Part shown: positions 3,992-57,517 of the stretch, one piece after another
How positions within the stretch are numbered: the stretch's first letter is position 1
How the letters are laid out: every line of letters starts with the position of its first letter
DNA from: Escherichia phage vB_EcoM-pEB20
Reading direction: 5' to 3' (one strand)
DNA length: 64,000 nt
Sequence record: OP114733
The notes under the pieces: generated by a model
The model's database searches: none
Seen by the model: only the letters and a program-made list of their open reading frames with translations
What the model was told of the DNA's origin: nothing
Position numbers and translations under genes: made by a program

Positions 3992-4065
3992 GGCCCTGTA
4001 GCTCAACGGTTAGCAGCAGTCCCCTCATAAGGGAAAGGTTACCAGTTCGAATCTGGTCTGGGTCA
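3992..4065 (+). tRNA. tRNA with CAU anticodon (Met or Ile2/lysidine type)
   Basis: Acceptor stem GGCCCTG/CTGGGTC, T-arm ACCAG-TTCGAAT-CTGGT, anticodon loop CTCATAA; no encoded CCA; D and anticodon stems each have one mismatch. Confidence 0.7.
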
Positions 4066-4071
4066 TATATT

Positions 4072-4148
<77 letters not shown>

Positions 4149-4166: not shown

Positions 4167-4511
4167 ATGAAAGGCAATATTTATCTGGTAGTTCATGATT
4201 TAACGTTTTATTTTAACGAACATGATACAGTTATTTCAGGCCGATTGATTAATTTGTTATACCAACACGCAGATTACATCTATGTTCAAAATGAATTCGG
4301 CCATTGGAAGTTCATTAAAAACCGTTCCAGGTTAACTAGTTTTGAATACTTTGACCGTAAAGACCTTTTAAACGAAATTCCATTGCAACATCGGTTCCAG
4401 AAACGCGAATCATTATATTATTGCCGTCATATACCAAACGCCGAATGTGTTAATGAAGCGATTAATCTATGGCGTCGGCGTCGAGAGCAAATTGATGATA
4501 TGCCAAAATAA
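4167..4511 (+). CDS. hypothetical protein
   Basis: 114 aa from ATG 4167 with GAGGA SD; track ORF start 4119 lies inside tRNA-Arg and is rejected. Confidence 0.55.
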   Translation: MKGNIYLVVHDLTFYFNEHDTVISGRLINLLYQHADYIYVQNEFGHWKFIKNRSRLTSFEYFDRKDLLNEIPLQHRFQKRESLYYCRHIPNAECVNEAINLWRRRREQIDDMPK

Positions 4512-4822
4512 GAAGCCGGGTCGCTACCGGCAAGTCGTCGGACTGATGTTCCCTGGGTAAGGACTAGCCTTAATAAATCTTTATGTTTTGTTAATGCTCC
4601 CTTACATCACAGCAGAAACGGCGCACAGAATTATCGATTCGAGGAAATATCTTTGCCGTAAGCCGAGTAGCGTTTTTGACGGAACGTTCGGATATGGTCG
4701 AGATATGGCCTTTTAAAAATATTAAGTAGCGTCAACTACTTAATAACCAGGTTCAAATCCCGGCGTTTCGTACAAACACTTGCCTTAGCAGGTGGAACCC
4801 CGACAAGGTTGCCGCAAGGCTT

Positions 4823-4853
4823 AGCCCCTTCCGAAAGGTTGGGGCTTTTTTTT
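4823..4853 (+). terminator. rho-independent terminator
   Basis: Hairpin AGCCCC..GGGGCT followed by T8 run. Confidence 0.7.
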
Positions 4854-4897
4854 GCATAATAATAAATAGATAAGTTAATTAACTTAGGAAAAGTAAC

Positions 4898-5368: not shown

Positions 5369-5396
5369 GCCCCTTCCTTATGGTTGGGGCCTTTTG
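5369..5396 (+). terminator. rho-independent terminator
   Basis: Hairpin GCCCC-ttccttatggtt-GGGGC then CTTTTGG; same hairpin recurs at 20605. Confidence 0.65.
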
Positions 5397-5428
5397 GTAT
5401 CTAGGGCATAAAAATATTTCATAAAGTT

Positions 5429-5791: not shown

Positions 5792-5859
5792 AAATAATGA
5801 TGTACAAGCACCAAGGATGGTGATACTATAGACTTATCAACTACAGAGGAGTAAACAAA

Positions 5860-6070: not shown

Positions 6071-6298
6071 ATGGCTAAAGTTAGTATTGATGTCGTTGAT
6101 TATGAATACACTGAAGAAGTTATTCGCAACCGTCACCCTGAAGTTCGTATCGATTCAGTCCAAGATTCCAAGTTCTGGACAACCGAGCTTAATCTGAGTG
6201 GTCCTTATGAAGCTGTTAAGAAGTTCATGGTTGAAGAATACTGCGAAGGCATGCACCCCGAAGACGCCAAGTTTTATGTCAATTTGATTAAAAAATAA
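6071..6298 (+). CDS. hypothetical protein
   Basis: 75 aa ORF with SD AAGAGGAAAA. Confidence 0.5.
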   Translation: MAKVSIDVVDYEYTEEVIRNRHPEVRIDSVQDSKFWTTELNLSGPYEAVKKFMVEEYCEGMHPEDAKFYVNLIKK

Positions 6299-6334
6299 TT
6301 TACAAACTCTTGAGAGCAGAGTATAATGCTCTCA
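6299..6334 (+). promoter_or_regulatory. early promoter TTTACA..TATAAT flanked by IR TGAGAGCA/TGCTCTCA; near-identical copy at 36028
   Basis: -35 TTTACA 6299, -10 TATAAT 6322; about 45-bp repeat shared with 36028-36075. Confidence 0.55.
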
Positions 6335-6368
6335 TTGGATAATAAACCACCAATTGAAAGGTAATAAT

Positions 6369-6962
6369 ATGAACACACTGAAGAAACTTGTTGAATTCAT
6401 CCGCACTAAACTGGGTACTGCTATGGCTAAAAATCTGACTGTCGAAGAACAGTATAACGCAGCTGCAGATAAGTTGATTACCCAAATCAAAGAACTAAAA
6501 ACAGCTTCTGTTAAATCTATTAATGAAGAAAAACGTATTCGCGAACTTGTTAATGAAAAGAACAAGCAAGCCGCTTCTAAGGAACGTGAAATTCGTAAGC
6601 TCTTGGCTGAAGGACAAGATGTTACCATGCATGCTAAGCTTGGTCTTCTGTATCGTCGAACTGCCGAACAACTTAATACAAAAGCTGACGGATATGCCGC
6701 TATGCGAATTGAAATTGCTCGTAAGGTGGTTGAACTTGACGATGCTCGTCAGAACCTGGCAATCAAACTCGAATACATTCGTGAAACTCGAGCAGCCAAT
6801 GCCCTTGGTATCTCTACGGCCGATGATGTAATTGAAATCGCTGCACTGACTAAGGTTGATATCGAAGACACTCTGACTCGTGTTGAAACGTTCAATGGCA
6901 CTCCAGTCGGCGTCGAAACCACTTCTGCTGATGTACAAGAATATATTAACTCTTTGAAATAA
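6369..6962 (+). CDS. coiled-coil hypothetical protein
   Basis: 197 aa from ATG 6369; Lys/Glu-rich heptad-like sequence. Confidence 0.6.
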
Positions 6963-12638: not shown

Positions 12639-12662
12639 TACCTCCTATAAACATGGGAGGTA
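12639..12662 (+). promoter_or_regulatory. SD-sequestering hairpin with embedded late-promoter-like TATAAACA upstream of lysozyme gene
   Basis: TACCTCC-tataaacatg-GGAGGTA; 3' arm is the e gene SD; same arrangement described for T4 e. Confidence 0.6.
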
Positions 12663-12664
12663 TT

Positions 12665-13153
12665 ATGAATATATTTGAAATGCTTCGTAATGACGAAGGT
12701 CTTAGACTGACTTTATACAAAGACACTGAAGGCTTTTGGACGATTGGCATCGGCCATTTAGTAACAAAGAACCCGTCTTTAGCCGTAGCTAAAGCTGAAC
12801 TTGACAGAATGATCGGTCGTAAATGCAACGGTACAATTACCCTTGATGAGGCTGAAAAGCTATTTAATGAAGACGTTGATAAAGCCGTCCGCGGAATCTT
12901 GGGTAATGCTAAACTTAAACCGGTATATGATTCTTTAGATGCGGTTCGTCGATGCGCATTGGTTAATATGGTCTTCCAAATGGGTGTATCAGGCGTCGCC
13001 GGTTTTACTAATTCTCTTCGTATGCTTCAACAGAAACGTTGGGATGAAGCGGCAGTAAATCTAGCCCAATCTAAATGGTATCGTCAGACACCTAATCGTG
13101 CGAAACGCGTAATCTCAACATTTAAAACAGGAACTTGGAAAGCGTATATATGA
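12665..13153 (+). CDS. e: lysozyme (endolysin) e
   Basis: 162 aa [15 protein letters not shown]...; near-identical to T4 lysozyme including catalytic E11/D20/T26 region. Confidence 0.95.
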
Positions 13154-13432: not shown

Positions 13433-13486
13433 GTTTACTTCCTCCAAGGACTTTGATACTATACATTCATCAACTACTTGGAGGAA
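13433..13486 (+). promoter_or_regulatory. early promoter with long IR TTCCTCCAAG/CTTGGAGGAA spanning promoter and SD of denV
   Basis: GTTTAC 13433, -10 TACTAT 13457; 3' IR arm contains SD GGAGGAA. Confidence 0.55.
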
Positions 13487-13489
13487 ATT

Positions 13490-13903
13490 ATGACCCGTAT
13501 CAATTTAACACTTGTTTCTGAACTGTCCGACCAACATCTTATGGCTGAGTATCGTGAATTACCACGCGTATTTGGTGCAGTCCGTAAACATGTTCAAAAC
13601 GGTAAACGTGTAAAGGATTTTAAAATCTCTCCAACATTTATCTTAGGCACAGGTCACGTAACATTCTTTTACGACAAACTCGAATTTTTACGTTTACGAC
13701 AAATCGAGCTAATCGCTGAATGCTTGAAACGTGGTTTCAAAATCAAGGACACGACTGTCCAGGATATTTCCGACATCCCTGCCGAATTTCGTAATAATTA
13801 TGTCCCGTCCGAAGCGTCCATTGCGATAAGTCAAGCACGCTTAGATGAAAAAATTGCTCAACGTCCGACTTGGTACAAATACTATGGTAAATCAATTTAC
13901 TAA
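13490..13903 (+). CDS. denV: endonuclease V (pyrimidine dimer DNA glycosylase) DenV
   Basis: 137 aa [29 protein letters not shown]...; near-identical to T4 endo V. Confidence 0.95.
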
Positions 13904-13910
13904 GGAAAAA

Positions 13911-14171
13911 ATGAAAATGTATCAAGAATTTATCACTGAAGCAGATGCCAAAGGTCCTAAATTTAAAGTTAAAGCTTTCATTGGTGATGCGGAAGACTTT
14001 GGCTCATTAAAACGTAATGGGTATTCTTTCTTAGGTGGCAATGGTAAAGAAATCAACACCTATGCAAAACGTAGTGAAATTGCTTATGTTGTAGCAAGCC
14101 CTAAAGTAGATGTTGACGATATTGGATACGATTTTAACAACTTCGGAATTATTTCTGGCGGTAAAGATTAA
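13911..14171 (+). CDS. internal-protein-like protein with CTS
   Basis: 86 aa starting MKMYQEFITEA; SD AAGGAAA. Confidence 0.6.
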   Translation: MKMYQEFITEADAKGPKFKVKAFIGDAEDFGSLKRNGYSFLGGNGKEINTYAKRSEIAYVVASPKVDVDDIGYDFNNFGIISGGKD

Positions 14172-14174
14172 ATT

Positions 14175-14204
14175 GTTTACGCTTAAGTATTAATATGGTA
14201 TAAT
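14175..14204 (+). promoter_or_regulatory. early promoter
   Basis: GTTTAC 14175, 18 nt spacer, TATAAT 14199. Confidence 0.5.
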
Positions 14205-14235
14205 TACTCTATCAAAACAAACAAGGAAACAAAAA

Positions 14236-14550
14236 ATGAAAACGTATAAAGAATTTATTGCAGAATCCGCCAACCAACGCGTTGAAGGTGGTTATATTTG
14301 GATTGAACAAGTTGAGCCACCGAGCCGCACTTCTACAGGTAAATGGAAAATTACTGTTGACGGTCCTGGCGGTAAACGTAGGACTCTTAAAGAAATTAAC
14401 GGGTACTATGAAGAAGCTCTTTCGGATGCAGGAACTTACATGATGCAAATCATGATTAAAAACCCTGAAAACCGTTTTGCAGCTAAAGTCTTCCGCCGTA
14501 TTGGTAATAAACTTTATGATGCATACTCTAAAAACTTCCCTAAAGAATAA
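14236..14550 (+). CDS. internal-protein-like protein with CTS
   Basis: 104 aa starting MKTYKEFIAES. Confidence 0.65.
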   Translation: MKTYKEFIAESANQRVEGGYIWIEQVEPPSRTSTGKWKITVDGPGGKRRTLKEINGYYEEALSDAGTYMMQIMIKNPENRFAAKVFRRIGNKLYDAYSKNFPKE

Positions 14551-14575
14551 CATAAATTAAAACAATAGGAACAAA

Positions 14576-16990: not shown

Positions 16991-17040
16991 GTTTACTTCT
17001 CCTCTAGTTGTGTTACTATAGACCTGTCAACTAGAGGAGA
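16991..17040 (+). promoter_or_regulatory. early promoter with 13-bp IR TCTCCTCTAGTTG/CAACTAGAGGAGA spanning -10 and SD
   Basis: GTTTAC 16991, -10 TACTAT 17015; 3' arm includes GAGGAGA SD of regB. Confidence 0.55.
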
Positions 17041-17047
17041 AATCAAA

Positions 17048-20604: not shown

Positions 20605-20632
20605 AGCCCCTTCCTTATGGTTGGGGCTTTTT
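20605..20632 (+). terminator. rho-independent terminator
   Basis: AGCCCC-ttccttatggtt-GGGGCT + TTTTT; same hairpin as 5369. Confidence 0.7.
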
Positions 20633-20643
20633 GGCATCTATCA

Positions 20644-25213: not shown

Positions 25214-25250
25214 GTTTACAAGGTCTATGGTTATGTTATTATAGACCTAT
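25214..25250 (+). promoter_or_regulatory. early promoter with IR AGGTCTAT/ATAGACCT
   Basis: GTTTACA 25214, -10 TATTAT 25237. Confidence 0.5.
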
Positions 25251-25269
25251 CAACTACTGGAGGTAAAAC

Positions 25270-25797
25270 ATGAACGCTAAAGATATTTTCAACCTGGTAA
25301 ATTATAACGACGGTAAATTTAAATCTGAAGCACAAAGCAAGTTCTTTAATGACGTTGCTTATGGTAACGAGATTACCGTGGACGGAGGTCAGATTTTCAA
25401 ATCTCGCTGGAATTGGATTGTTATCATCGATTCAGTTGGAATTGTGGAAGTCTACAAAAACACTAACAAAAAACGTACATTATTCTGGTCTCGTGAAACT
25501 AACGAGCAGTACAAAAAGGATAAAGCATCTCGTTTATCCAAAGTAACCCAGGAAGATATCGAGTTTATCAAGAAAGATATCGAGATGTACGAAAATTTAA
25601 TCGCTGAAGACCAGGCAGTACTCGATAAGTTTGATGAAATTAAAGCTTCTCGTGAAATCCCTGACTTCATGAAAGAATCAGTAAACGAACGATACGCTCT
25701 CACTTCAGAACGTATTGCAAACTATACAAAACAGAAAGCAGAACGTATTAGTACTCTTCGGAAATTTGAAGAACGTTTAAAGACGGTTCACGCATAA
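25270..25797 (+). CDS. hypothetical protein
   Basis: 175 aa ORF. Confidence 0.55.
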   Translation: MNAKDIFNLVNYNDGKFKSEAQSKFFNDVAYGNEITVDGGQIFKSRWNWIVIIDSVGIVEVYKNTNKKRTLFWSRETNEQYKKDKASRLSKVTQEDIEFIKKDIEMYENLIAEDQAVLDKFDEIKASREIPDFMKESVNERYALTSERIANYTKQKAERISTLRKFEERLKTVHA

Positions 25798-25859: not shown

Positions 25860-26855
25860 ATGAGCATTACATCTGATGCGGTAAAACATGAAATTAACGG
25901 TTTATGTGCTTCACAGATTAAAGTGTGGTTTAAAGACCATAATGATCGCAGAGCACTTAATTATGAACAAATTGCTATCCAAGTTCATCAATTACTGGTT
26001 AGTAAATTTGATTTTCATATGCCGTCTGAAATCTATACTAATCTGCCGCGAGCACTTATTAAAGCGTGTAAAGGTTATGGAAAATCAATGGCTGATGGAA
26101 TCTTCAGCGCGCTGAATAAACTTAACGTTCTGTCGATGATTAACTCTAACAACATCCTTCGTAATCTAGGACGTACTGATTTGTTCGGTCGTGAACAGGG
26201 TAAAATGCCTTTGAAATGGATTGTTGCTCATCTTAACGAGAACCAAACACGTTTTATGGCCGTAACAGCACGCTTACAAATGGGCCTAGATCGTCAGATG
26301 AACTTTAAAACTCATCCACGTTATTCAGGTTCAACTGACTTTTATAAATGTGAGCTTCAAAAGGTTGCAGGTAAAACTGTCTTAGTAGTTCGTGTAACGT
26401 TTGAAGGACGACGTCAAGGATATTTTGACATAATCGGCTCCGGGCTTAAACATTGTGGATTTATCGACGAAGTTGATATCAAGCGAGACGGCATTGGATA
26501 CCGTATTGGATATGTTTGTACTCTTAAAGAAGAGATTTCAGGACCAGCACCAGGACTAAAAGACGTTAGATATAAAGACGAGCTCATTGAAGAAATAAAA
26601 GAAGTTGAATATGATATCAACCAAGAAGATGCTCTTAAAGACCTTATTGACGAACTAAACCAAGACTTTATTCCGGTTCAGAAATTTGAATCAAAACATG
26701 CTGAGCAAATCAAATACTTTGAAGCTTTGATTAACGAACTTAATGTAACTATTCAACAGACCGACGATGAAATCTCACGATTAGCAGGCTTAAATGGTAA
26801 AAATAAAACAGAACGAGCTAATCTTATTCAAGTAGTAAAACTTCTTAAGGAATGA
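25860..26855 (+). CDS. hypothetical protein with C-terminal coiled coil
   Basis: 331 aa ORF. Confidence 0.6.
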   Translation: MSITSDAVKHEINGLCASQIKVWFKDHNDRRALNYEQIAIQVHQLLVSKFDFHMPSEIYTNLPRALIKACKGYGKSMADGIFSALNKLNVLSMINSNNILRNLGRTDLFGREQGKMPLKWIVAHLNENQTRFMAVTARLQMGLDRQMNFKTHPRYSGSTDFYKCELQKVAGKTVLVVRVTFEGRRQGYFDIIGSGLKHCGFIDEVDIKRDGIGYRIGYVCTLKEEISGPAPGLKDVRYKDELIEEIKEVEYDINQEDALKDLIDELNQDFIPVQKFESKHAEQIKYFEALINELNVTIQQTDDEISRLAGLNGKNKTERANLIQVVKLLKE

Positions 26856-26884
26856 TGTACAACCAAGGAAGGTTGGAGTATAAT
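26856..26884 (+). promoter_or_regulatory. early promoter, near-identical to copy at 27851
   Basis: TGTACA..CAACCAAGGAAGGTTGGAG..TATAAT. Confidence 0.5.
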
Positions 26885-26910
26885 AAATTTTTCAACATGA
26901 GGAATATAAA

Positions 26911-27846
26911 ATGGCTTCTATTACACGTAGAGAACTTATCAAAGAATTTACCTCGAACGCATATACCCCAGGACCTAATCCTATCCGTATGCCTGTAAAG
27001 ACTCCTGAAGAGATTGAGGAAATCTGTTCATATTATGGGATTAATTCTCGTAAGTTTACTCAATTTGAATGCGTTACTAACACACCCGTTAAAGAGTTCA
27101 TTAAAAATGGTGAGTTCAGCCGTTTATTAGCCAAACAGAAACTTCGTAATTTTTGTATCGGCGGTTACGGACAATATTTCGCTAAGCAGTTCCGGAATAA
27201 CCTTAACAATCTGATGGCCATTGCTTCTCGTATTCGTCCTCAAGCAATTAACATGAAACATTTGAAATATACTTACGATAAGTTGGAAATCATGGTTATC
27301 AGTGAGAATGAGTTCACTCTCACGTATAAACCTAAGAATGATAACGTTGCTCGTGTATTCCACCAAGCGTTGGAAGTGTTAGGTGATAATATTCACCAGA
27401 TTAAAGCAATTTATTCTCGTGAGCTTAATATTATCAACCCTATCAAGAATAAGGGCCATATCGCTATCCAGGCTCGTGTATCTATTGGTAAAAAGGTTCC
27501 TGCGCCATGGTGGCACAAAGACTCTGAATACTATCAAAATCTTAAAAAGGAAAATGCAACGTTCGAAGCGTCAATTACTGCAACACCAATTGGCCATGCT
27601 GAAGTTCTAGGTGCATATTCTACTGCTCCATCTATACACATTTCACCGTCGACTAAACTGGAAATCTCTAACGGTCTTCTTCCTGCCGAAGATTACCATT
27701 ATAATCAAATCAAGGCCACTGTAGACCAACTATCCGTTGAACTTGACAAAGCACAAGCTAAGCTTCGTGATGCTCAACAAGTAGTTACCAAGCTCCAGTT
27801 GCAGTACTCTAAACTTTTTAACGCAATGAATGCGTTAAAATCATAA
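26911..27846 (+). CDS. hypothetical protein with C-terminal coiled coil
   Basis: 311 aa ORF. Confidence 0.6.
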   Translation: MASITRRELIKEFTSNAYTPGPNPIRMPVKTPEEIEEICSYYGINSRKFTQFECVTNTPVKEFIKNGEFSRLLAKQKLRNFCIGGYGQYFAKQFRNNLNNLMAIASRIRPQAINMKHLKYTYDKLEIMVISENEFTLTYKPKNDNVARVFHQALEVLGDNIHQIKAIYSRELNIINPIKNKGHIAIQARVSIGKKVPAPWWHKDSEYYQNLKKENATFEASITATPIGHAEVLGAYSTAPSIHISPSTKLEISNGLLPAEDYHYNQIKATVDQLSVELDKAQAKLRDAQQVVTKLQLQYSKLFNAMNALKS

Positions 27847-27850
27847 ATCA

Positions 27851-27880
27851 GTTTACAACCAAGGATGGTTGGAGTATAAT
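27851..27880 (+). promoter_or_regulatory. early promoter, near-identical to copy at 26856
   Basis: GTTTACA 27851, CAACCAAGGATGGTTGGAG, TATAAT 27875. Confidence 0.55.
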
Positions 27881-27908
27881 GAATTTATCTTAACGAGAGG
27901 AAAATATT

Positions 27909-28859
27909 ATGACACGTTCACATTACATTGAATACTTTGCAGGTCTTATCGCTAACGTTCATGCCCAACGTGCTTCTGGTGCACTAGGATTTGATGTTCC
28001 ACACCGAGATGTAGTAAGTGGTATTCTTCGCGATTTTGGTACATACACAGGCCAAGAAAATCATATCTGTAAAGATACTCAGAATGCGTATTCTCATTCA
28101 TTAGGGACGCTGCTTCAATGGTTCAAACGTTCTCGTTTATTATCTTCTACTGTAGCTCGCGATAACATTAAAAACTTTATGAAACCGAGCTTTATTAAAT
28201 CTGTGACATCTAAAACTGATTTGGTTGAATTCACTATTGTTAATGATGTTAAAAAGACTCATTTGGCTGATTGGTTATCTACCATTCCTGAAACTAAATT
28301 TGCTGATAAATTTGCTTGTGAATTCAATAAACAAGTGAATATGCTTTTTAAACATTCTCGTAAATTATTCACTGGCGGTGATGGCCGTACAAATAAAGTT
28401 CATGTTAAAGATTGGGTTACTGCAGTATTCAAACCAACTGGTAATGGTAACGCATCATTATCAATTGATATCCAGGTTCCTTATTACTACTCACGTAATC
28501 TCGGTACCATGAAAGCCGAAGAAATTAATAAGCACAACAAAACTATTCGTTCGTTGTCTTATAAACTTATTACATTGTTAGAGACTATGGATGTTGTTGA
28601 AACGTTCGACGAATCCGAAGATAACGGTTCAATGTTATATAGTTCTCGTACCCGAATTAAGTTGAAGAACCCTAACGAGTATAAACTTAAGACTATTAAA
28701 GAACCTAAAGTAGAAAAGGTTGATATCATGGCTGAAGAACGTGAATATCTCAAATCTCGTCTGAAAGAAGTCGAAGCCCAGATTGCAGAACAAACTAAAT
28801 CGTTAAAAGCTCTGAATGCGAAAGCGGATGGTTTACGAAATGCCATTGAGGTGTTATAA
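27909..28859 (+). CDS. hypothetical protein with C-terminal coiled coil
   Basis: 316 aa ORF. Confidence 0.6.
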   Translation: MTRSHYIEYFAGLIANVHAQRASGALGFDVPHRDVVSGILRDFGTYTGQENHICKDTQNAYSHSLGTLLQWFKRSRLLSSTVARDNIKNFMKPSFIKSVTSKTDLVEFTIVNDVKKTHLADWLSTIPETKFADKFACEFNKQVNMLFKHSRKLFTGGDGRTNKVHVKDWVTAVFKPTGNGNASLSIDIQVPYYYSRNLGTMKAEEINKHNKTIRSLSYKLITLLETMDVVETFDESEDNGSMLYSSRTRIKLKNPNEYKLKTIKEPKVEKVDIMAEEREYLKSRLKEVEAQIAEQTKSLKALNAKADGLRNAIEVL

Positions 28860-30979: not shown

Positions 30980-31453
30980 ATGTTATTATCAGGCGCAAAA
31001 TATAAAGAAGAAAAACAAAAATTTTATGATGCACAGAACGGTAAGTGTCCTATTTGCCACCGTGAATTAGACCCTGATGTTCAAGGTAACCATCTTGACC
31101 ACGACCACGAATTAAACGGGCCAAAAGCAGGTAGAGTTCGTGGGTTACTCTGTTCTCTGTGCAACGCAGCAGAAGGTCAAATGAAGCATAAGTTCAACCG
31201 TTCCGGTCTTAAAGGTCGTGATGTCAACTACCTAGAATGGCTTGAAGCTCTTCTTGCTTATTTGAAACAAGATTATTCTGATAATAATATCCATCCTAAT
31301 TTTGTTCCAGACAAAACTAAAGAGTTCTCAAGACTAGGTAAAGAGGAAATGATGGCCGAGATGCTTCAAAGAGGATTTGAATATAATGAATCTGATACTA
31401 AAACACAATTAATAGCTTCATTCAAAAAGCAGCTTAGAAAGAGTTTAAAATGA
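30980..31453 (+). CDS. 49: recombination endonuclease VII (Holliday junction resolvase)
   Basis: 157 aa MLLSGAKYKEEKQKFYDAQNGKCPIC...HLDHDHE; near-identical to T4 gp49. Confidence 0.95.
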   Translation: MLLSGAKYKEEKQKFYDAQNGKCPICHRELDPDVQGNHLDHDHELNGPKAGRVRGLLCSLCNAAEGQMKHKFNRSGLKGRDVNYLEWLEALLAYLKQDYSDNNIHPNFVPDKTKEFSRLGKEEMMAEMLQRGFEYNESDTKTQLIASFKKQLRKSLK

Positions 31454-35091: not shown

Positions 35092-35385
35092 ATGGGTAAA
35101 ACATATCGTCGTAAAGATTTGAAAGTTCGCGATTACGACTATTTTGGTAAGCGTAAAGCTCCTGACGGTGTTAGCCACAAAGACATGGTTGAAAACATTT
35201 TCCGCTCAGATAAATGGAAACGTATGAAAGGCGTTGATTCTGAAGTCAAGAACGAAATGAATCGACAACTCCGCAAAGAAGTTCGTAAGTTGAAAAAAGA
35301 TGTTTACAGTAAAGAAGATTATGATTATAATACTTCTCATACTGAAGCCAAACGTAAAGCTAACGAATGTTATCGTTACAGTTGA
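35092..35385 (+). CDS. hypothetical basic protein
   Basis: 97 aa from ATG 35092 (TGAGGT SD). Confidence 0.5.
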   Translation: MGKTYRRKDLKVRDYDYFGKRKAPDGVSHKDMVENIFRSDKWKRMKGVDSEVKNEMNRQLRKEVRKLKKDVYSKEDYDYNTSHTEAKRKANECYRYS

Positions 35386-35392
35386 GGAAATT

Positions 35393-35527
35393 ATGAATAT
35401 CAAACGAATGCTTTTTAAGCAGGGATTATATACTTTAAATGTTAATCCAAAGGGTGATACAACTAAATGGTCTGTAAATGACTGGATTAAGTTCATCGAT
35501 GAAAATGGGGCCTGGAACACAAAATGA
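35393..35527 (+). CDS. small hypothetical protein
   Basis: 44 aa from ATG 35393 with GAGGAAA SD. Confidence 0.35.
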   Translation: MNIKRMLFKQGLYTLNVNPKGDTTKWSVNDWIKFIDENGAWNTK

Positions 35528-35724
35528 ATCCTGAATCTATGTTATCGCAAAAGCTTCGTGAAGAACGTGCCGAATTCTTTGCCAATATGAAACTCAACGG
35601 CGTTGAGGATGAAGACTTCTTACGCTGGTTCTGGATTTACAAATACAAAGAATGCCAACATGCCGTGCTATTGACTTGCGCAGTTATGTACGAAGGCTGG
35701 AAAGGCGCTAAAAAGTTCGGTTAA
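35524..35724 (+). CDS. small hypothetical protein
   Basis: 66 aa; ATGA overlap. Confidence 0.45.
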   Translation: MNPESMLSQKLREERAEFFANMKLNGVEDEDFLRWFWIYKYKECQHAVLLTCAVMYEGWKGAKKFG

Positions 35725-35727: not shown

Positions 35728-35767
35728 TGTACAACGATAGGAAGATAATAACATGACTTCCTATCGT
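35728..35767 (+). promoter_or_regulatory. promoter region within perfect 11-bp IR ACGATAGGAAG/CTTCCTATCGT
   Basis: TGTACA then IR arms 35733-35743 and 35757-35767. Confidence 0.45.
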
Positions 35768-35787
35768 CTTAAAATGAGGAAAATATC

Positions 35788-36027
35788 ATGGCCCAAGAAT
35801 TAGATTTTATCAAATTCAAAAAACACCTCGACGTTAAAATTGGGGATTCAATTGTTAGGATTGAGTATGACATTTTAACAGATGCTATTACTGTTAGTTG
35901 TGATGGAAATAGTTTCAGCTTCGATACAACCGAAAACAAATACCCAATCTATAAAGGCATCTTTGATATGGGTGTTGATATTACTCCACGTGATACAAAT
36001 TACTTACTTTTCATGCTTAAAAAATAA
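35788..36027 (+). CDS. hypothetical protein
   Basis: 79 aa ORF. Confidence 0.5.
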   Translation: MAQELDFIKFKKHLDVKIGDSIVRIEYDILTDAITVSCDGNSFSFDTTENKYPIYKGIFDMGVDITPRDTNYLLFMLKK

Positions 36028-36062
36028 TATACAAACTCTTGAGAGATGAGTATAATGCTCTC
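36028..36062 (+). promoter_or_regulatory. early promoter, near-identical repeat of 6299-6334
   Basis: ATACAAACTCTTGAGAGatGAGTATAATGCTCTCgTTGGATAATAAA. Confidence 0.55.
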
Positions 36063-36093
36063 GTTGGATAATAAAATAACCGAGGAAAATAAT

Positions 36094-36426
36094 ATGTCTA
36101 CTAAAATCAAAAACGTAGTTAATTCTTTCGCTTTCGATAAAGTTGTTGCTCTTCTGGAATCCGGCAATATTGTTACTCCTCAAGTTCTTGACGCGTGGGA
36201 ATTCCGTCTTTATGAAATCATGCAAAAACACGACCAGAAAATTGGACGTAATTCTATTCGTGAAATTCTAGTACAATATATTCTTTCTGAATTTGGCGTT
36301 GCTGCATTTGGTGTTGAATCTAAAGCTTATCAGAAACATGAAATCTCTGAAAAGACTATCCGTCGTATGAAAAATCAACGTAAGAAAAAATTCGTTGACC
36401 TGAAAATTGTTAAGGCGGCAAAATGA
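36094..36426 (+). CDS. hypothetical protein
   Basis: 110 aa from ATG 36094 with GAGGAAAA SD. Confidence 0.5.
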   Translation: MSTKIKNVVNSFAFDKVVALLESGNIVTPQVLDAWEFRLYEIMQKHDQKIGRNSIREILVQYILSEFGVAAFGVESKAYQKHEISEKTIRRMKNQRKKKFVDLKIVKAAK

Positions 36427-40033: not shown

Positions 40034-41718
40034 AATCATTTAAATTAAATCGTGTTCGTTATCAAAACATCATGTCGGTAGGTGGGAATCCTATTGATAT
40101 CCAATTAGATAAAGTCCAAAAGACATTAATCACTGGTAAAAATGGCGGTGGTAAATCTACGATGTTAGAAGCCATTACTTTCGGACTTTTCGGTAAACCA
40201 TTTCGTGATGTTAAGAAAGGACAAATCATTAATAGCACGAACAAGAAAGAGCTCTTAGTTGAGCTTTGGATGGAATTCGATGATAAAAAATACTTCATTA
40301 AACGTGGCCAAAAGCCCAATATTTTCGAAATCTCCGTTGACGGTGTTCGTCTTGATGAATCTGCCAGCAGTCGTGACTTCCAAGAAGAATTTGAACGTAG
40401 CATCGGAATGTCATACGCGTCTTTTAAACAAATCGTTGTGCTTGGGACGGCAGGGTATACCCCTTTCATGGCTCTTAGCACCCCTGCTCGTAGAAAACTT
40501 GTCGAAGACCTTTTAGAAGTAGGCACACTCGCTGAAATGGATAAAATCAATAAGTCTCAAGTTCGAGAACTTAATTCCCAGGGACAAGTTCTCGATGCCA
40601 AGAAAGATGGTGTTATCCAACAAATTAAGATTTATAATGAGAATATCGAACGTCAAAAGAAATTATCTGGTGATAATGTAGCGCGTCTACAGAATATGTA
40701 TGACGACCTAGCCAAAGAAGCTCGTTCATTAAAAGCAGAAATCGAAGAAGCTAATGAGCGACTACTTAATATCGTTCTTGATGAAGACCCTACTGAGGCA
40801 TTCAACAAGATAGGACAAGAAGCATTCTTGATTAAATCTAAAATCGACTCATATAACAAAGTTATTAAGATGTATCATGATGGCGGTACATGTCCTACTT
40901 GTGCATCACAGTTGCACCAGGGTGATCCTATTGTCTCTAAGATTACCGATAAGCTTCATGAATGTAATCACTCATTCGAGCAACTTACCTGTCACAGAGA
41001 TAATCTGAGTGTCCTAGTGGACGAATATAGAGCTAATGTTAAGACTAAACAGGACCTTGCATCTGATATTCGTACCAAGAAACAAGCAATGATTGCCACT
41101 ATTGATAAAGCTAAGAAAGTTAAAGCTGCAATAGAACAAGCCTCAGCAGAATTTATCGACCATGCCGATGAGATAGCTTTGCTTCAAAAAGAACTTGATA
41201 AAATCATTAAAACAAAATCGGATATCGTTCTTGAAAAATACCATCGTGGTATTATCACAGATATGTTAAAAGATTCTGGTATTAAAGGTGCTATCATTAA
41301 AAAATATGTGCCTCTGTTTAATAAGCAGATTAACCATTATCTTAAAATCATGGAAGCTGATTACGTGTTTTCTATTGATGAAGAATTCAATGAATCTATA
41401 AAATCACGTGGTCGTGAAGAGTTCAGTTATGCTTCATTTAGTCAAGGTGAAAAAGCACGTATCGATATTGCACTGTTGTTTACATGGCGAGATATTGCTG
41501 AAAAGGTCTCTGGTGTTAGAATCAATACATTAATTATGGACGAAGTCATGGATTCCGCGACTGATTCTGAAGGTATTAAAGCTATTTCAACAATTCTTAA
41601 CTCTCTAACCGATGCAAACGTGTTTATAATTAGTCACAGAGACCATGACCCACAAGCTTATGGACAACATCTTCAAATGAGCAAAGTTGGACGATTTACT
41701 GTAATGACTGTTTCATAA
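40030..41718 (+). CDS. 46: recombination ATPase gp46 (Rad50/SbcC-like)
   Basis: 562 aa; Walker A GKNGGGKST, zinc hook CPTC, Walker B LIMDEV. Confidence 0.95.
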   Translation: MKSFKLNRVRYQNIMSVGGNPIDIQLDKVQKTLITGKNGGGKSTMLEAITFGLFGKPFRDVKKGQIINSTNKKELLVELWMEFDDKKYFIKRGQKPNIFEISVDGVRLDESASSRDFQEEFERSIGMSYASFKQIVVLGTAGYTPFMALSTPARRKLVEDLLEVGTLAEMDKINKSQVRELNSQGQVLDAKKDGVIQQIKIYNENIERQKKLSGDNVARLQNMYDDLAKEARSLKAEIEEANERLLNIVLDEDPTEAFNKIGQEAFLIKSKIDSYNKVIKMYHDGGTCPTCASQLHQGDPIVSKITDKLHECNHSFEQLTCHRDNLSVLVDEYRANVKTKQDLASDIRTKKQAMIATIDKAKKVKAAIEQASAEFIDHADEIALLQKELDKIIKTKSDIVLEKYHRGIITDMLKDSGIKGAIIKKYVPLFNKQINHYLKIMEADYVFSIDEEFNESIKSRGREEFSYASFSQGEKARIDIALLFTWRDIAEKVSGVRINTLIMDEVMDSATDSEGIKAISTILNSLTDANVFIISHRDHDPQAYGQHLQMSKVGRFTVMTVS

Positions 41719-41720
41719 AC

Positions 41721-41744
41721 GCTTTAACACGATGTGGTTATAAT
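41721..41744 (+). promoter_or_regulatory. middle promoter candidate within IR GATGTGGT/ACCACATC
   Basis: GCTTTAA at 41721, 11 nt, TATAAT at 41739. Confidence 0.45.
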
Positions 41745-41772
41745 GACCACATCAAATTAAATGGAGAACAAC

Positions 41773-41961
41773 ATGGAGTATTCAACCGGACAACATCTTC
41801 TTGTTGTCCCTGAAATTAAAAAATATGTTTTGACCAATACGTTTTCAGGTGAAGAACATATTGTTACTGAACAAATGCTCAAATCTGCTTTTAAAGATGA
41901 GTATAATAAAATAATGTCTAATCGCAATTCCGCATGGACAGTTACCGACTTCTACGAATAA
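41773..41961 (+). CDS. small hypothetical protein
   Basis: 62 aa from ATG 41773. Confidence 0.45.
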   Translation: MEYSTGQHLLVVPEIKKYVLTNTFSGEEHIVTEQMLKSAFKDEYNKIMSNRNSAWTVTDFYE

Positions 41962-41973
41962 GAGAGAAATAAT

Positions 41974-42390
41974 ATGTTTACTACTGCTAAAGGTTTCACT
42001 GCTGCTGATCTGAAAGTTACTTCTATCCGTACTGACGCTAACCCACATAACCATAATCGTGTTCGTAAAGCATGGGTCCTGCATTGTGATGACGCAAGTG
42101 CTAAAAAGCTTCAATCTCTTCCACAAGAAACTCGTTTCATGATTTATGGCTTTATTGATAACGATGTGTCTGATATGTGGATTCATTTGATGCGTAAGCA
42201 CTATAAAGATTCTATCGAAGCAGGTGCTAAAATCGTTCTTGATAAAGACGGTTCTGAACGCCTTGAAGATTTTTACTGTGTTGATGCCGACGAACAACTA
42301 ATTGCAGCTGGCGAAATTGTTGCTTCTAAAATTCCAGAATATATTGAATCACTGCCTGAAGCTATTAAAAAGCAGATGGTTGCTGCATAA
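41974..42390 (+). CDS. rpbA: RNA polymerase binding protein RpbA-like (by position)
   Basis: 138 aa between 46 and 45 as T4 rpbA; sequence identity not verified. Confidence 0.55.
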   Translation: MFTTAKGFTAADLKVTSIRTDANPHNHNRVRKAWVLHCDDASAKKLQSLPQETRFMIYGFIDNDVSDMWIHLMRKHYKDSIEAGAKIVLDKDGSERLEDFYCVDADEQLIAAGEIVASKIPEYIESLPEAIKKQMVAA

Positions 42391-42432
42391 TAAATTTGTT
42401 ATAAACTTTGAATTGTCTTGAAAGGAAATAAA

Positions 42433-43119
42433 ATGAAACTGTCTAAAGATACTATCGCTATTCTGAAAAACTTCGCTTCTATTAACTCTGGCATCCTGCT
42501 GAGTCAAGGTAAATTTATTATGACTCGTGCAGTTAATGGCACCACTTACGCAGAAGCAAATATCTCTGATGAAATTGATTTTGACGTAGCACTTTATGAT
42601 TTGAATAGCTTCTTAAGCATTTTGAGTCTAGTGTCTGATGATGCTGAAATTTCAATGCACACCGATGGCAATATTAAAATTGCAGATACACGTTCTACTG
42701 TTTATTGGCCTGCCGCAGACAAGAGCACTATCGTGTTCCCGAATAAGCCAATTCAGTTCCCAGTAGCTTCCGTTATTACTGAAATTAAAGCTGAAGACCT
42801 CCAACAATTGCTCCGAGTTTCACGTGGACTGCAGATTGATACAATTGCTATTACAAATAAAGATGGTAAAATTGTTATCAATGGCTATAATAAAGTTGAA
42901 GATTCTGGACTAACTCGTCCTAAGTATTCTTTGACTCTTACCGATTATGATGGTTCTAACAACTTTAACTTCGTAATCAATATGGCTAATATGAAAATCC
43001 AGCCAGGTAACTATAAAGTAATGTTGTGGGGAGCTGGTGATAAAGTTGCAGCCAAGTTTGAAAGCTCTCAAGTAAGTTATGTTATTGCGATGGAAGCCGA
43101 TTCTACTCACGACTTCTAA
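42433..43119 (+). CDS. 45: sliding clamp gp45
   Basis: 228 aa MKLSKDTIAILKNFASINSGILL...; near-identical to T4 gp45 as recalled. Confidence 0.95.
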   Translation: MKLSKDTIAILKNFASINSGILLSQGKFIMTRAVNGTTYAEANISDEIDFDVALYDLNSFLSILSLVSDDAEISMHTDGNIKIADTRSTVYWPAADKSTIVFPNKPIQFPVASVITEIKAEDLQQLLRVSRGLQIDTIAITNKDGKIVINGYNKVEDSGLTRPKYSLTLTDYDGSNNFNFVINMANMKIQPGNYKVMLWGAGDKVAAKFESSQVSYVIAMEADSTHDF

Positions 43120-43194
43120 GTCAAAGCTTTACGTTTATTGTGATACGATTATGGAGGAGAAATCCTCCAGTTTAATGATAATGAGGAAAATTAC

Positions 43195-44157
43195 ATGATT
43201 ACTATCAATTCCAAAGAACACATTCTAGAACAGAAATATCGTCCTTCTTCCATTGACGAATGTATTCTGCCTGCGTATGACCATGAAACATTCAAGTCTT
43301 TAGTATCTAAAGGAAAACTTCCTCATATTATTTTACACTCTCCATCTCCTGGTACCGGTAAAACAACCGTGGCAAAAGCATTATGTAACGATATCAACGC
43401 TGAAATGATGTTCGTCAACGGTTCTGATTGTAAAATTGATTTTGTACGTGGTCCGTTAACTGCATTCGCTCGTTCAGTCTCAATGGAAGGCAAGCCGAAA
43501 GTTATCGTTATCGATGAATTTGACCGTAGTGGCCTTGCTGAATCACAACGGCACCTTCGTACGTTTATGGAAGAATTCTCTAGTAACTGTTCTATTATTA
43601 TTACTGCCAACAACATCGATGGAATTATCGAACCGTTACGTAGTCGTTGTCGAGTTATCGAATTCGGACGTCCAACCGAAGAAGATAAAATCTCAATGAT
43701 GAAGAAAATGATTCATCGCATGGTTGAAATCTGTAAGAACGAAAATATCGAAATCGCTGATATGAAAGTTGTTGCAGCTCTGGTTAAAAAGAACTTCCCA
43801 GACTTTCGTCGTACAATTGGCCAATTAGACCAGTACTCGTCTAAAGGTGTTCTTGATGCGGGTATTTTGTCGATTGTAACCAATGATCGTGGCACGGTAG
43901 ATGATGTCATAGAAGCAATGAAAAATAAAGATATCAAACAGCTTCGTGCATTAGCTCCAAAATATGCCGCTGATTATTCATGGTTCATCGATAAATTAGT
44001 TTCTGAGTGTTATGACAAAGTTGCACCGGGTAAAAGTATTATTTCGCTTTACGAAATTGCAGGCGAAAATAATAAGTTTCATGGGCTAGCTAGTAATATT
44101 GAATTACATGTTATGTATATGCTTCTTCAATTGACTTGTGAATTGACTTGGAAATAA
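43195..44157 (+). CDS. 44: clamp loader large subunit gp44
   Basis: 320 aa AAA+; Walker [10 protein letters not shown], Walker B VIVIDEFD. Confidence 0.95.
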
Positions 44158-44158
44158 T

Positions 44159-44722
44159 ATGAACTTATTTGATGATGACGTCCAACTTAACGAGCACCAA
44201 ATCGCATGGAAGTCTAATGACGCTGATGCGATTCAAAAATGTGCTGATATGTTTAAAGAAAAACCTGAGAATGAATTCTTTAAAATCATTAATGCTATTA
44301 ATGAAAAGAAATCTATGTCAATTGCTCAGGTTGACTACTCAAAATTTATGGTTGAGAACTCATTATCCCAGTTCCCGGAATGTATGCCTGCAGTTTACAT
44401 GATGAACTTGGTCGGCTCTGAATTAAGCGATGAAGCACACTTCAACTACATGATGGCCGCCATTCCGCGTGGTCGTCGATTCTCTAAATGGGCTAAACTA
44501 GTTGAAGACACTTCAGAGTTACTAGTTATCAAACTGTTGATGAAACATTACATAATCAACATGAATGATGCCACCGAGTATAAGCGGCTCCTTGAAAAAA
44601 ATAACAAGTTGCCAATAGTCCTTAAAGAACTGAAGGCCATGGTCACTGATGAGTTTCTCAAAGAAGTTACAAAAAATGTGAAAGAACAAAAACAATTTAA
44701 AAAATTAGCATTGGAATGGTAA
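44159..44722 (+). CDS. 62: clamp loader small subunit gp62
   Basis: 187 aa; position between 44 and regA. Confidence 0.9.
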
Positions 44723-44724
44723 AA

Positions 44725-45093
44725 ATGATTGAAATTAAATTGAAGAACCCTGAAGATTTTCTGAAAGTCAAAGAGACTTTGACCCGTATGGGCATCGCTA
44801 ATAACAAGGATAAAGTCCTTTATCAGTCCTGTCATATCCTCCAAAAGCAAGGTAAATATTACATCGTCCACTTTAAAGAAATGCTGCGAATGGACGGACG
44901 TCAGGTTGATATTGATGGTGAAGACTATCAGCGACGTGATTCGATTGCTCAGTTGCTTGAAGACTGGGGATTGATTGTTATTGAAGACTCTGCTCGTGAA
45001 GATCTGTTTGGCCTGACTAATAACTTCCGTGTTATCTCTTTTAAACAGAAAGATGACTGGACTTTGAAAGCAAAATATACAATTGGTAATTAA
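44725..45093 (+). CDS. regA: translational repressor RegA
   Basis: 122 aa MIEIKLKNPEDFLKVKETLTRMGIANNKDKVLYQSCHILQK; near-identical to T4 RegA. Confidence 0.9.
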   Translation: MIEIKLKNPEDFLKVKETLTRMGIANNKDKVLYQSCHILQKQGKYYIVHFKEMLRMDGRQVDIDGEDYQRRDSIAQLLEDWGLIVIEDSAREDLFGLTNNFRVISFKQKDDWTLKAKYTIGN

Positions 45094-45097
45094 AGCA

Positions 45098-45118
45098 ATG
45101 GGACTTCGGTCCCATTTG
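45098..45118 (+). terminator. hairpin with UUCG tetraloop (terminator/RNA stability element)
   Basis: ATGGGAC-TTCG-GTCCCAT then TTGG. Confidence 0.5.
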
Positions 45119-45174
45119 GAGTATAATAAGTTCATCAACAAACAAAAGACAATAACTCGTCTAAAGGAAATTAA

Positions 45175-47886: not shown

Positions 47887-47926
47887 TATAATGTCATGGA
47901 CGGTAAACTAATTAAATGAGAGAAAT

Positions 47927-48562
47927 ATGAAAACTACTCCTATTACTATCGCTATTGACGCAATTATAAAACAAGCTTCTTCTTTGGCCGCTATGGCCAA
48001 AGTAATTAGTCAAAACCCTGCTCGTTATAATGCTATTCTAGAAACTCTTCGACGCCCTGGACTTAGTAATTATGAAAGCCGGGTAATTATTACAGGTGTT
48101 GGTAAGAATGCTAATATCGCAACTAAAGCTTCCGAGACTTTTGCTTCACTCGGTATCCCGAGTATGTACTTGAACACTGGGCATTATTCTCACGGTGATG
48201 CAGGATTCATTGCGCCTAATGATGTGTTGATTCATATTAGTCGTTCTGGTAAAACTGAAGAAATGATAGGCGTGGCTAAGCATCTTAAAATGATTCGTCC
48301 GAATGTCAAACAGATTCTGTTGCATTGTAACCCAGACATTCCACAAGAAAATGAAGCCCTTTTTGATTACTCTTTCTGTACAGGCATCGCGGTAGAGGTT
48401 GATGAGAATTCTCTGGCTCCGACTATGTCCACTACATTGTTGTTAGCGCTTATCGATACGTTTGCTATCAACCTTTCGTCTGAGCGTGGATTTACCTCTA
48501 ATGACTTCCTTAAGTTCCATCCAGGCGGTGCACTAGGTGCCATGTTACGAGGCGAACAATGA
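47927..48562 (+). CDS. SIS-domain sugar-phosphate isomerase (arabinose-5-phosphate isomerase-like, KdsD/GutQ family)
   Basis: 211 aa; GVGKNANIATKASETFASLG, HGD, LAPTMSTT and HPGGALG motifs align with the KdsD SIS domain; no CBS domains. Confidence 0.8.
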   Translation: MKTTPITIAIDAIIKQASSLAAMAKVISQNPARYNAILETLRRPGLSNYESRVIITGVGKNANIATKASETFASLGIPSMYLNTGHYSHGDAGFIAPNDVLIHISRSGKTEEMIGVAKHLKMIRPNVKQILLHCNPDIPQENEALFDYSFCTGIAVEVDENSLAPTMSTTLLLALIDTFAINLSSERGFTSNDFLKFHPGGALGAMLRGEQ

Positions 48563-48743
48563 AAGCAATAACAATAGGACTTTTACTATTGATGCTTGTC
48601 ATGACTATCTACTGGAGCTTAACGGCTCCAGTAATGATTCCAACACTTGTAATTGGATGGATTATGATTGGACTACAAGCAAAGTATGAATGCTTTAACT
48701 AGAATAGTGTACAATACTCCTACTTACCAATGAGGACTTCAAC

Positions 48744-50429: not shown

Positions 50430-50794
50430 TGCAACTATGCTTCGATGTCGATGATTGTATAACCGAATGGAATAACAATCGTGATTACGCTAATTTTAAA
50501 CCGGACCTAGAAATGGTGGCAGCCATTAATGCCTTGTATGACGCAGGGCATACCATCACGCTTTACACTGCTCGTGGTATGAAGTCTGTAGGTCCTGGAC
50601 GTATTGCTGTAGATATCCTACCAGGTCTGTTACAGAACTTAGCTAACATTGGTTTGAAGTATCATAATTTGCTAACACATAAACCAGTATATGATTGGAT
50701 TATCGACGACAAAGCTATGCGTCCTGACGAATTCAAAGCTCTTATGAATAAAGGCGAATTCGAAACATTTAAATCATATAAACCAAATCTATAA
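50429..50794 (+). CDS. HAD-superfamily phosphatase-like protein
   Basis: About 121 aa; motif I FDVDDCIT; start 50429 (TAATG overlap) or 50414. Confidence 0.6.
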   Translation: MQLCFDVDDCITEWNNNRDYANFKPDLEMVAAINALYDAGHTITLYTARGMKSVGPGRIAVDILPGLLQNLANIGLKYHNLLTHKPVYDWIIDDKAMRPDEFKALMNKGEFETFKSYKPNL

Positions 50795-50840
50795 TAATTT
50801 AAGTAAGACCTGCAAAAACCGTCGCATCAATTAACGCGAG

Positions 50841-52010: not shown

Positions 52011-52246
52011 TTTCTAGAAAAACTTTTAACCACCAACTTAATGAAGAGATTTTGACTATAAAACTGAACACTAACGAACAAATTCTTAAAAAGGCCCTGA
52101 TGGGCCTGTTTGAAACTAAAGCGGCTAAAGTGATTAAAGAACCTGTTCAATTGGAATACTACGCTGATGCATTTCTTCATAGTGTTCTTGGAAGTATCGA
52201 TGCTGAAGCTTTACGTTATATCAACATTGTCAAGAAATTCAAATAA
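52007..52246 (+). CDS. hypothetical protein
   Basis: 79 aa ORF; ATGA overlap. Confidence 0.45.
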   Translation: MISRKTFNHQLNEEILTIKLNTNEQILKKALMGLFETKAAKVIKEPVQLEYYADAFLHSVLGSIDAEALRYINIVKKFK

Positions 52247-52288
52247 GCTTTACGAATTGAGTATATAATAAATTGTATTGAGGTAAAC

Positions 52289-53904: not shown

Positions 53905-53905
53905 A

Positions 53906-54454
53906 ATGGCTAAAATTATTTTAGTAGATGGCCCGGATAATGCTGGTAAAACAACTTTCATTAATGACATAATGGAAATTAGTGAAAGATATGTAAAGAT
54001 TGATTTCCCTAAACGAACAGTTGATGGGCGTTTCGATGTTAAGTCTCGAAATGAAGTTGGCTGTTTCGAAACGATGTTGAATTATTTAGACCCTACTAAG
54101 ATTTATCTGTTAGACCGTGGATATATTAGTAACTGGGTTTATGGACGTATTCGACAAGATGCGGACTCGATTCTTGACGTTTATGAACAGGACTATGTTC
54201 GTCTTTGCCAAAACCATGATGTGTTCACAATTATTTTAACACGTAACGAAATGACTGAAAGTTTTGAAGACGACCTTATTACTTTGTCTTCACTCAGTTT
54301 CAATACAGTCATTTCACATTTTGAAGAGTTTGCAATTCATAACAAAATCCAAACGTATCAATTACTTAATCATGATGGTGCTAACAAAGTTATAGGATTT
54401 AATGCAAGCGAACGTAATTATTTGATTACAGAAATTATCAAATGGGCTCGTTAA
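53906..54454 (+). CDS. P-loop kinase-like protein
   Basis: 182 aa; Walker A VDGPDNAGKTT at N-terminus as in NMP/small-molecule kinases. Confidence 0.6.
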   Translation: MAKIILVDGPDNAGKTTFINDIMEISERYVKIDFPKRTVDGRFDVKSRNEVGCFETMLNYLDPTKIYLLDRGYISNWVYGRIRQDADSILDVYEQDYVRLCQNHDVFTIILTRNEMTESFEDDLITLSSLSFNTVISHFEEFAIHNKIQTYQLLNHDGANKVIGFNASERNYLITEIIKWAR

Positions 54455-56059: not shown

Positions 56060-56068
56060 GGAGTTATC

Positions 56069-57511: not shown

Positions 57512-57517
57512 TAAAAA

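Follow-up and report, generated by a model that had tools for sequence, protein, structure and literature searches.

Dispersed promoter-stem-loop cassettes in the early region of an RB69-like T4-type phage and their probable part in accessory gene exchange

Repeated early promoters carrying a stem-loop, known as PeSL (promoter-early stem-loop) cassettes, have been described in the T4-type phages RB49 and phi1 (Arbiol 2010, PMC2839356) and in T4/PST and KVP40/nt-1 (Comeau 2014, PMC4122927). A PeSL consists of an AT-rich tract, sigma-70-like boxes, a stem-loop that lies between the boxes or overlaps them, and a Shine-Dalgarno sequence with its ATG; PeSLs are concentrated in hyperplastic regions and bound indels between close relatives (PMC2839356, PMC4122927). 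Crossovers between neighbouring PeSLs give rise to mini-circles, which have been detected by inverse PCR, and both promoter and terminator activity of PeSLs have been assayed (PMC2839356, PMC4122927). For T4/PST the published consensus is TTTACW-N17-TAYWAT, with stems of AGNA...TCNT form. A comparable arrangement is the internal-protein (IP) locus of T4, where, in the account of Repoila 1994 given in PMC4122927, conserved 5' leader repeats mark the limits of accessory-gene insertions, deletions and replacements.

In this study, a stretch of 64,000 nt from sequence record OP114733 (hereafter the window) was analysed. It belongs to a T4-type phage of the RB69-like lineage (Mosigvirus) and covers the long early region from gene 1/57A to soc/mrh, with every gene on the + strand; it is about 97% identical to many Mosigvirus genomes, among them AV111, JM10, mogra and O157 typing phage 3 (tp3, NC_041863). 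Identity between T4 and the window is 70-80%, over T4 coordinates that descend from about 75 kb to about 15 kb, T4 being in reverse orientation. The + strand of the window carries about 28 early-promoter-like elements, almost all within the e, tk/vs, nrdC, 55.x and dmd/61.x blocks of small accessory genes, and the scan of this strand found none in the replication-gene block 41716-57542.

Like PeSLs, the elements of the window are intergenic, have boxes separated by N17, carry a stem, occur in many copies and have the ORF boundaries of relatives inside them, and the T4/PST consensus fits the commonest window type, ATAGGACTA...TAGTCCTAT. The cassettes match the PeSL type already described, and the finding is correct yet ordinary for this phage group. 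Unlike the published PeSL hosts, the lineage of the window is RB69-like (Mosigvirus) and lies outside the analysis of those papers; unlike the RB49 PeSLs, the stems of the window are A/T-rich, without the G-run/C-run form and without a T-tail. The elements also resemble T4 early promoters (Hinton 2010, PMC2988021) in their A-rich tract, GTTTAC-type -35, 17-bp spacing and strong -10, and in their position before immediate-early accessory genes, whereas the four copies treated below lack TGn and so differ from the T4 'uber' UP/-35/TGn/-10 class. What is new is in each case modest: the RB69-like lineage, subfamilies whose stem covariation is shared with T4, and the frequencies of two cassette polymorphisms.

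The earlier note on this DNA had reported that a promoter segment of about 45 bp is duplicated at 6299 and 36028, and that a second near-identical promoter pair lies at 26856 and 27851. Alignment bears out both pairs. Positions 6285-6346 and 36014-36075 are identical at 57 of 62 positions (92%), at a spacing of 29,729 bp, and the 45-nt core 6302-6346 is found again, with 3 mismatches, at 36031-36075. In the second pair, 26858-26890 and 27854-27886 agree at 31 of 33 positions at a spacing of 996 bp, the downstream copy being placed at 27852; beyond a core of about 35 nt these two copies diverge and differ by an indel. A chance origin of either pair was rejected, since no second match appeared in shuffled sequence, whether for the 45-nt core (0 in 100 dinucleotide-preserving shuffles) or for the core of the second pair (0). 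All four copies are intergenic and on the coding strand, between the stop codon of the upstream gene and the next ATG.

The first copy of the 30-kb pair (6285-6346, + strand) is located between a Frd3-family ORF (6071-6298) and the ATG at 6369. It comprises an A-rich tract with the upstream stop codon (6285-6298), the -35 TTTACA (6299-6304), the -10 TATAAT (6322-6327) and a conserved 5' leader, TTGGATAATAAA, that extends to 6346. A perfect 8-bp inverted repeat on the + strand, TGAGAGCA/TGCTCTCA (6311-6318 and 6327-6334), encloses an 8-nt loop holding most of the -10, and as RNA the hairpin 6311-6334 has a centroid energy of -12.6 kcal/mol (z = -3.6). The gene of this promoter is the e.6 homolog (6369-6962, + strand; 197 aa, phrog_1203, 88% amino acid identity to T4 e.6). 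The second copy (36014-36075, + strand; -35 TATACA at 36028-36033, -10 TATAAT at 36051-36056) stands before its gene, the 55.2 homolog (36094-36426, + strand; 110 aa, DUF7570, PF24454, 74% amino acid identity to T4 55.2), and its stem is degraded to 5 Watson-Crick pairs plus a G-T (fold z = -0.7). Upstream of this copy are a 79-aa accessory ORF (35788-36027, + strand; phrog_11314) and, as the left edge of the cassette of that ORF, a degenerate promoter-like element (35728-35767, + strand) in which TGTACA is followed by an 11-bp stem, ACGATAGGAAG (35734-35744) with CTTCCTATCGT (35757-35767); the element folds at -16.7 kcal/mol (z = -4.4). The 79-aa ORF was also considered as the 55.3 homolog, which protein comparison puts at 35524-35724 instead.

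In the nrdC region, the upstream copy of the 996-bp pair (26856-26890, + strand; -35 TGTACA at 26856-26861, -10 TATAAT at 26879-26884) follows a gene at 25860-26855 and carries the spacer stem CAACC (26860-26864)/GGTTG (26871-26875). The downstream copy (27852-27886, + strand; -35 TTTACA at 27852-27857, -10 TATAAT at 27875-27880) has the stem CAACCA (27856-27861)/TGGTTG (27866-27871) with the loop AGGA. Between the two copies lies a 311-aa accessory gene of the DUF7235 family, a distant nrdC.5 homolog (26911-27846, + strand), and the downstream promoter belongs to the 316-aa nrdC.3 homolog (27909-28859, + strand; 57% amino acid identity to T4 nrdC.3); the adjoining genes of about 320 aa named earlier at 26911 and 27909 thus exist as ORFs of 311 and 316 aa. 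A further stem promoter of the same type, CACCA-AGGA-TGGTG, was found at 5801-5829 on the + strand.

All four copies follow a common layout. An upstream stop codon within an A-rich, UP-like tract (such tracts read TTAAAAAATAAT, TTAAGGAATGA and ATCATAAATCAG) precedes T(T/G/A)TACA; a spacer of 17 bp separates this box from TATAAT, and a short leader then brings the Shine-Dalgarno sequence and the ATG. Their sigma-70 consensus scores, 11/12 at 6299 and 27852 and 10/12 at 26856 and 36028, are among the best in the window and agree with the earlier reading of these segments as promoters, although a generic scan for the sigma-70 consensus found no more sites in the window than in shuffled sequence. 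Scans found no TGn extended -10 in any of the four copies, which read GAGTATAAT; many other promoters of the window have one, as TGTTATAGT. From consensus and position, we infer that the four segments are immediate-early promoters for host sigma-70 RNA polymerase, with transcription putatively starting about 7 nt 3' of the -10. A separate TTTACA-N17-TATAAT site (11/12) is present at 35303-35331, inside the coding sequence of the 55.5/55.4 region, and is annotated as a promoter in NBG1; since it is a different site, inside an ORF at window position 35303, this NBG1 feature was rejected as an independent annotation of the cassettes.

It could be argued that the copies resemble one another only by convergence, that is, through selection for very strong early promoters, with neither common ancestry nor any role in recombination. 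T4 early promoters do have a consensus extending beyond the hexamers and beyond the UP/-35/TGn/-10 elements (PMC2988021), and the 27 early-promoter-like sites that we collected from the window and compared in all 351 pairs average 50% identity (sd 8.7%). Against this background, the e.6/55.2 pair is the most similar of all (86% over 69 aligned columns), sharing 15 of 17 spacer positions and 19 nt of leader, and the nrdC-region pair has the most similar spacer (16/17), positions at which other pairs vary freely. The near-identity thus reaches into spacer and leader, which RNA polymerase does not read, and points to common descent and exchange and not to promoter function alone. Convergence is further opposed by hybrid promoters at the exact edges of missing genes and by orthologous genes that have different cassette types in T4 and in the phage of the window, both described below, and we regard it as very unlikely.

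The two pairs are members of larger promoter subfamilies, each with four or more copies scattered over the genome, as counted in the complete relative tp3 (NC_041863). There the first type (family 1, that of the 6299 and 36028 copies) occurs in 4 copies, before e.6, 55.2, ndd and the gene at 13726, and the second (family 2, that of the nrdC-region copies) likewise in 4, before two nrdC-region genes, the gene at 142612 and a MotB-like gene. In T4, the motB promoter TTTACAAACTCTTGGGACCAGAGTATAATGGTCCC is of family 1, with the stem GGGACC/GGTCCC, in which two stem positions have changed on both sides. The T4 nrdC.3 promoter is of family 2, in the same layout as the nrdC.3 copy of the window and with the compensatory stem AGCCA/TGGCT, and that of nrdC.4 is also of family 2, with the compensatory stem CCACA/TGTGG. 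On the other hand, the T4 e.6 promoter has a spacer unrelated to that of the 6299 copy, and T4 55.2 has no promoter: there is just a terminator-like hairpin with the same TTGGATAATAAAAT leader behind it. Both types thus recur in T4, in part before other genes, so that no cassette type is bound to one particular gene.

The inverted repeat overlaps the -10 in the e.6/55.2 pair and lies within the spacer, with 5-6 bp, in the nrdC-region pair. A perfect stem of at least 6 bp is found in 13 of the 28 promoters, compared with 13-15% of random or shuffled 51-nt windows (binomial p ~1e-5 to 1e-4). Double-sided changes are seen at 4 of 6 pairs in family 2, where pairing holds in 92% of cells and none of 500 shuffles attains the observed covariation score, and at 2 pairs in family 1. 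Pairing in family 1 is likewise 92%, and falls to 31-52% once the 3' partners are shifted by 1-3 columns. The sequences behind all these covariation counts were picked by eye for showing the motif, and the counts thus lean towards structure. Compensatory changes also preserve the stem seen at 6311-6334 in the T4 motB copy and in the tp3 copy at 13669. On these pair counts and on the copies in T4 and tp3, the inverted repeat appears to be retained for its ability to pair, without a fixed sequence. This bears on the idea that palindromes overlapping the -10 are operators, bound by a dimeric repressor that shuts off early transcription. A palindrome over the -10 is the classical operator layout, and early shut-off in T4 is not fully explained (PMC2988021); yet at least six stem sequences occur, with compensatory differences (among them GAGAGC/GCTCTC, GGGACC/GGTCCC, CAACCA/TGGTTG, CATCCA/TGGATG and ATAGGACTA/TAGTCCTAT), and changes that are compensatory and do not preserve sequence point to a folded single strand and not to one sequence-specific protein, so that an operator role seems highly improbable.

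It has been proposed for the RB49 PeSLs that the inverted repeats act mainly as terminators or attenuators of read-through from upstream, and the conservation seen here might reflect the same role. The stem of RB49 PeSL211/210 cut lacZ expression as much as a strong terminator (PMC2839356), in phage SA79RD the counterpart of the 35734-35767 hairpin is annotated as a rho-independent terminator, and, were transcription to start about 7 nt past the -10, the cassette's own transcript would lack the 3' arm, and both arms would be present only in read-through RNA. Against such a role, no T-run follows the stem in any of the four cassettes, whose tails read ATTGGATAAT, GAGTATAAT and similar, and the terminator scan flagged none of the four stems, though it picked up other hairpins nearby, which makes an intrinsic-terminator role doubtful in this phage. 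Family-2 stems have just 5-6 bp, the 36028 stem is degraded, and separate canonical terminators stand a few dozen nt upstream of other cassettes, as at 5369-5403. Termination as the main role of the stems is therefore possible but unlikely. Still less likely, in our view, is a speculative reading in which the stems, selected as folded single strands (a view that the compensatory changes between T4 and RB69-like phages support) and not as terminators, might mark the cassettes for structure-directed copying or insertion, with whole subfamilies spreading and becoming homogenised across unrelated loci like small selfish elements; the phage recombination machinery might, for example, recognise a hairpin or cruciform. 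If true, this would account for the 49-nt identity found in mogra (below) and for the differing cassette types at T4 orthologues.

Several other structured elements were noted in the window. A G+C-rich terminator-type hairpin with a T-tail, GCCCCTTCCTTATGGTTGGGGCTTTTT, occurs at 5369-5403 and 20606-20640 (33/35 identity, 15 kb apart), with a weaker copy at 4824-4858; similar early promoters (5430 and 20645) lie 10-30 nt 3' of the two hairpins, forming a third dispersed repeat pair. At 16992-17047 and 57976-58030, 14-bp stems join a promoter spacer to the Shine-Dalgarno sequence of the gene that follows (TTCTCCTCTAGTTG...CAACTAGAGGAGAA; -21.6 kcal/mol, z = -5.2), the genes behind them being the regB homolog (17048) and an ORF at 58030, and similar stems are present at 25215-25270 and 13434-13490. 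In the 16992 and 57976 cases the ribosome site would be locked in the stem in read-through RNA from upstream, and free in RNA from the local promoter. Rfam, at gathering thresholds, assigned the cassettes to no known RNA family, its matches across the whole window being two tRNAs only.

The recombination potential of the nrdC-region pair can be read from two relatives, WFL6982 and F27, which match the window on both flanks and are without 26909-27853. Their alignment blocks overlap by 53 nt in their single promoter, which is a hybrid: it has TGTACA and the upstream flank of the 26856 copy, and GGATGG and the downstream flank of the 27852 copy, with the switch point inside ACAACCAAGGA. At megablast sensitivity the DUF7235 gene (26911-27846) is found in 132 records, compared with 152 for the gene just upstream, so that some 20 of 152 related records, or about 1 in 8, lack it. 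The earlier claim that the repeats are substrates for deletion thus stands for this pair, and the hybrid junctions support the view that it serves as a recombination substrate and yields viable variants in nature. The hybrid promoter alone shows no direction; since an nrdC.5 homolog is present in the T4 block, loss of the DUF7235 gene is more likely than its insertion. Exact homology between the two copies is 12-27 bp, less than the approximately 50 bp cited for efficient T4 recombination (quoted in Arbiol 2010, PMC2839356), and such crossovers must therefore be rare. The DUF7235 gene falls into two identity classes across related phage records, with 23 records at 95-99% and 108 at 90-95%; the upstream gene 25860-26855 is at 95-99% in 151 of 152 records. 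The pattern suggests replacement of whole-cassette alleles, besides presence and absence, at the DUF7235 gene.

The same pair might alternatively have been left behind by a tandem duplication that took in both gene and promoter, as neighbours of similar length (311 and 316 aa) stand behind near-identical promoters 996 bp apart. Yet the two proteins have no detectable similarity (E = 0.47), and the same holds for the upstream gene; they belong to different PHROG and Pfam families, their T4 counterparts are nrdC.5 and nrdC.3, respectively, and the similarity stops at the promoter core. We find this origin barely credible.

For the 30-kb pair, the claim of deletion found no support. The predicted 6299/36028 deletion junction was built and compared with 50,697 phage records, and none of the 162 matching records contained it in one piece, so a viable 30-kb deletion between these copies was rejected. 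The interval holds the lysozyme gene e (12653-13153) and gene 49, encoding endonuclease VII (30980-31453). Both e and gene 49 are needed for plaque formation in T4, and with the two inside the interval a deletion between the copies would not be viable. The inversion of accessory blocks that had also been proposed was discarded, because all copies are direct repeats on the + strand, between which inversion is impossible. Exchange of another kind is suggested by the copies themselves: those before e.6 and 55.2 are identical over 49 nt in mogra, share a G variant after the stem in tp3, and differ at five positions in the window. With very few informative sites in three genomes, this suggests that gene conversion may have taken place between the two copies.

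Boundaries of gene-content differences fall in other cassettes as well. Mogra and AV112 are without 35735-36026, which comprises the 79-aa ORF and the hairpin-bearing degenerate promoter, and in mogra the junction lies in the -35 of the 35728 element; the ORF is present in 98 records, compared with about 151 close matches for 55.2. In tp3, the counterpart of the promoter at window position 10408 carries an inserted 271-bp unit of spacer, ORF and -35 immediately behind its -35. In a contig of the public viral collection IMG/VR, the e.6 cassette is preceded by another gene, and homology stops at the -35; the exact-pattern scan of IMG/VR gave 6 loci only, a number too small for testing at population level. 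The window and tp3 differ by nine indels or replacements, and 4 of 14 boundaries fall in cassette intervals, which make up 4% of the window (p = 0.0018), an excess of which part is expected, since indels are tolerated only between genes.

A coding repeat was observed in the same comparison. Seven small genes (1850, 2223, 4898, 13150, 13911, 14236 and 14576) open with the near-identical ATGAAAACxTATCAxGAxTTTAT (MKTYQEF...), and this repeat edges 2 of the 9 indels relative to tp3 (window 1873; 13902-14566). These gene starts resemble the T4 IP leader repeats, which are coding and without a stem-loop, whereas the cassettes of the window are promoters.

Further differences from T4 were noted along the window. 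Only two tRNA genes (Met-CAT and Arg-TCT) are present at 3992-4148, where T4 has eight, and the adjoining 4506-4850 is 92% identical to the T4 stable RNA C/D region. The ORF at 6071-6298, directly upstream of the e.6 cassette, encodes a Frd3-family protein (PF05798, E = 1e-38) where T4 has e.7; frd.3 sits elsewhere in the T4 genome, so that the ORF has the look of an accessory gene that was relocated or is a paralogue. The interval 47927-52010 separates the DNA polymerase gene from the gene 42 homolog; there the 97%-identical relative NC_041863 is annotated with an arabinose-5-phosphate isomerase, a GlmU-like protein and a phosphoheptose-isomerase-like protein. In T4, imm and beta-glucosyltransferase are found nearby, and no match to T4 alpha- or beta-glucosyltransferase was seen within the window.

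Taken as a whole, we favour, with a probability of roughly 0.8, the explanation that the segments are PeSL cassettes, that is, repeated immediate-early promoters with a stem, related by descent and exchanging through recombination. The copies are direct repeats, 27-60 bp long, and homologous recombination in this genome is very active; an occasional crossover within them would excise or insert the intervening unit of promoter plus ORF and leave a hybrid cassette, such as TGTACAACCAAGGATGGTTGGAGTATAATGAATTT, at the product junction. For the 996-bp pair, a crossover would give viable variants; for the 30-kb pair it would be lethal, and the plausible outcomes there would thus be patch-wise copying (gene conversion) and the targeting of incoming cassettes.

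Phage therapy and phage typing both make use of T4-like phages from this group, whose accessory early genes are the expected seat of host-specific and anti-defence functions. The stem covariation shared with T4 offers a clean starting point for work on the function of the hairpin. Engineered inserts placed on reused native early promoters may be unstable, and easy loss is predicted for the DUF7235 gene and for the 79-aa ORF, each absent from an appreciable minority of sequenced relatives. Units of promoter plus ORF would explain much of the variation in gene content among isolates that are otherwise 97% identical.
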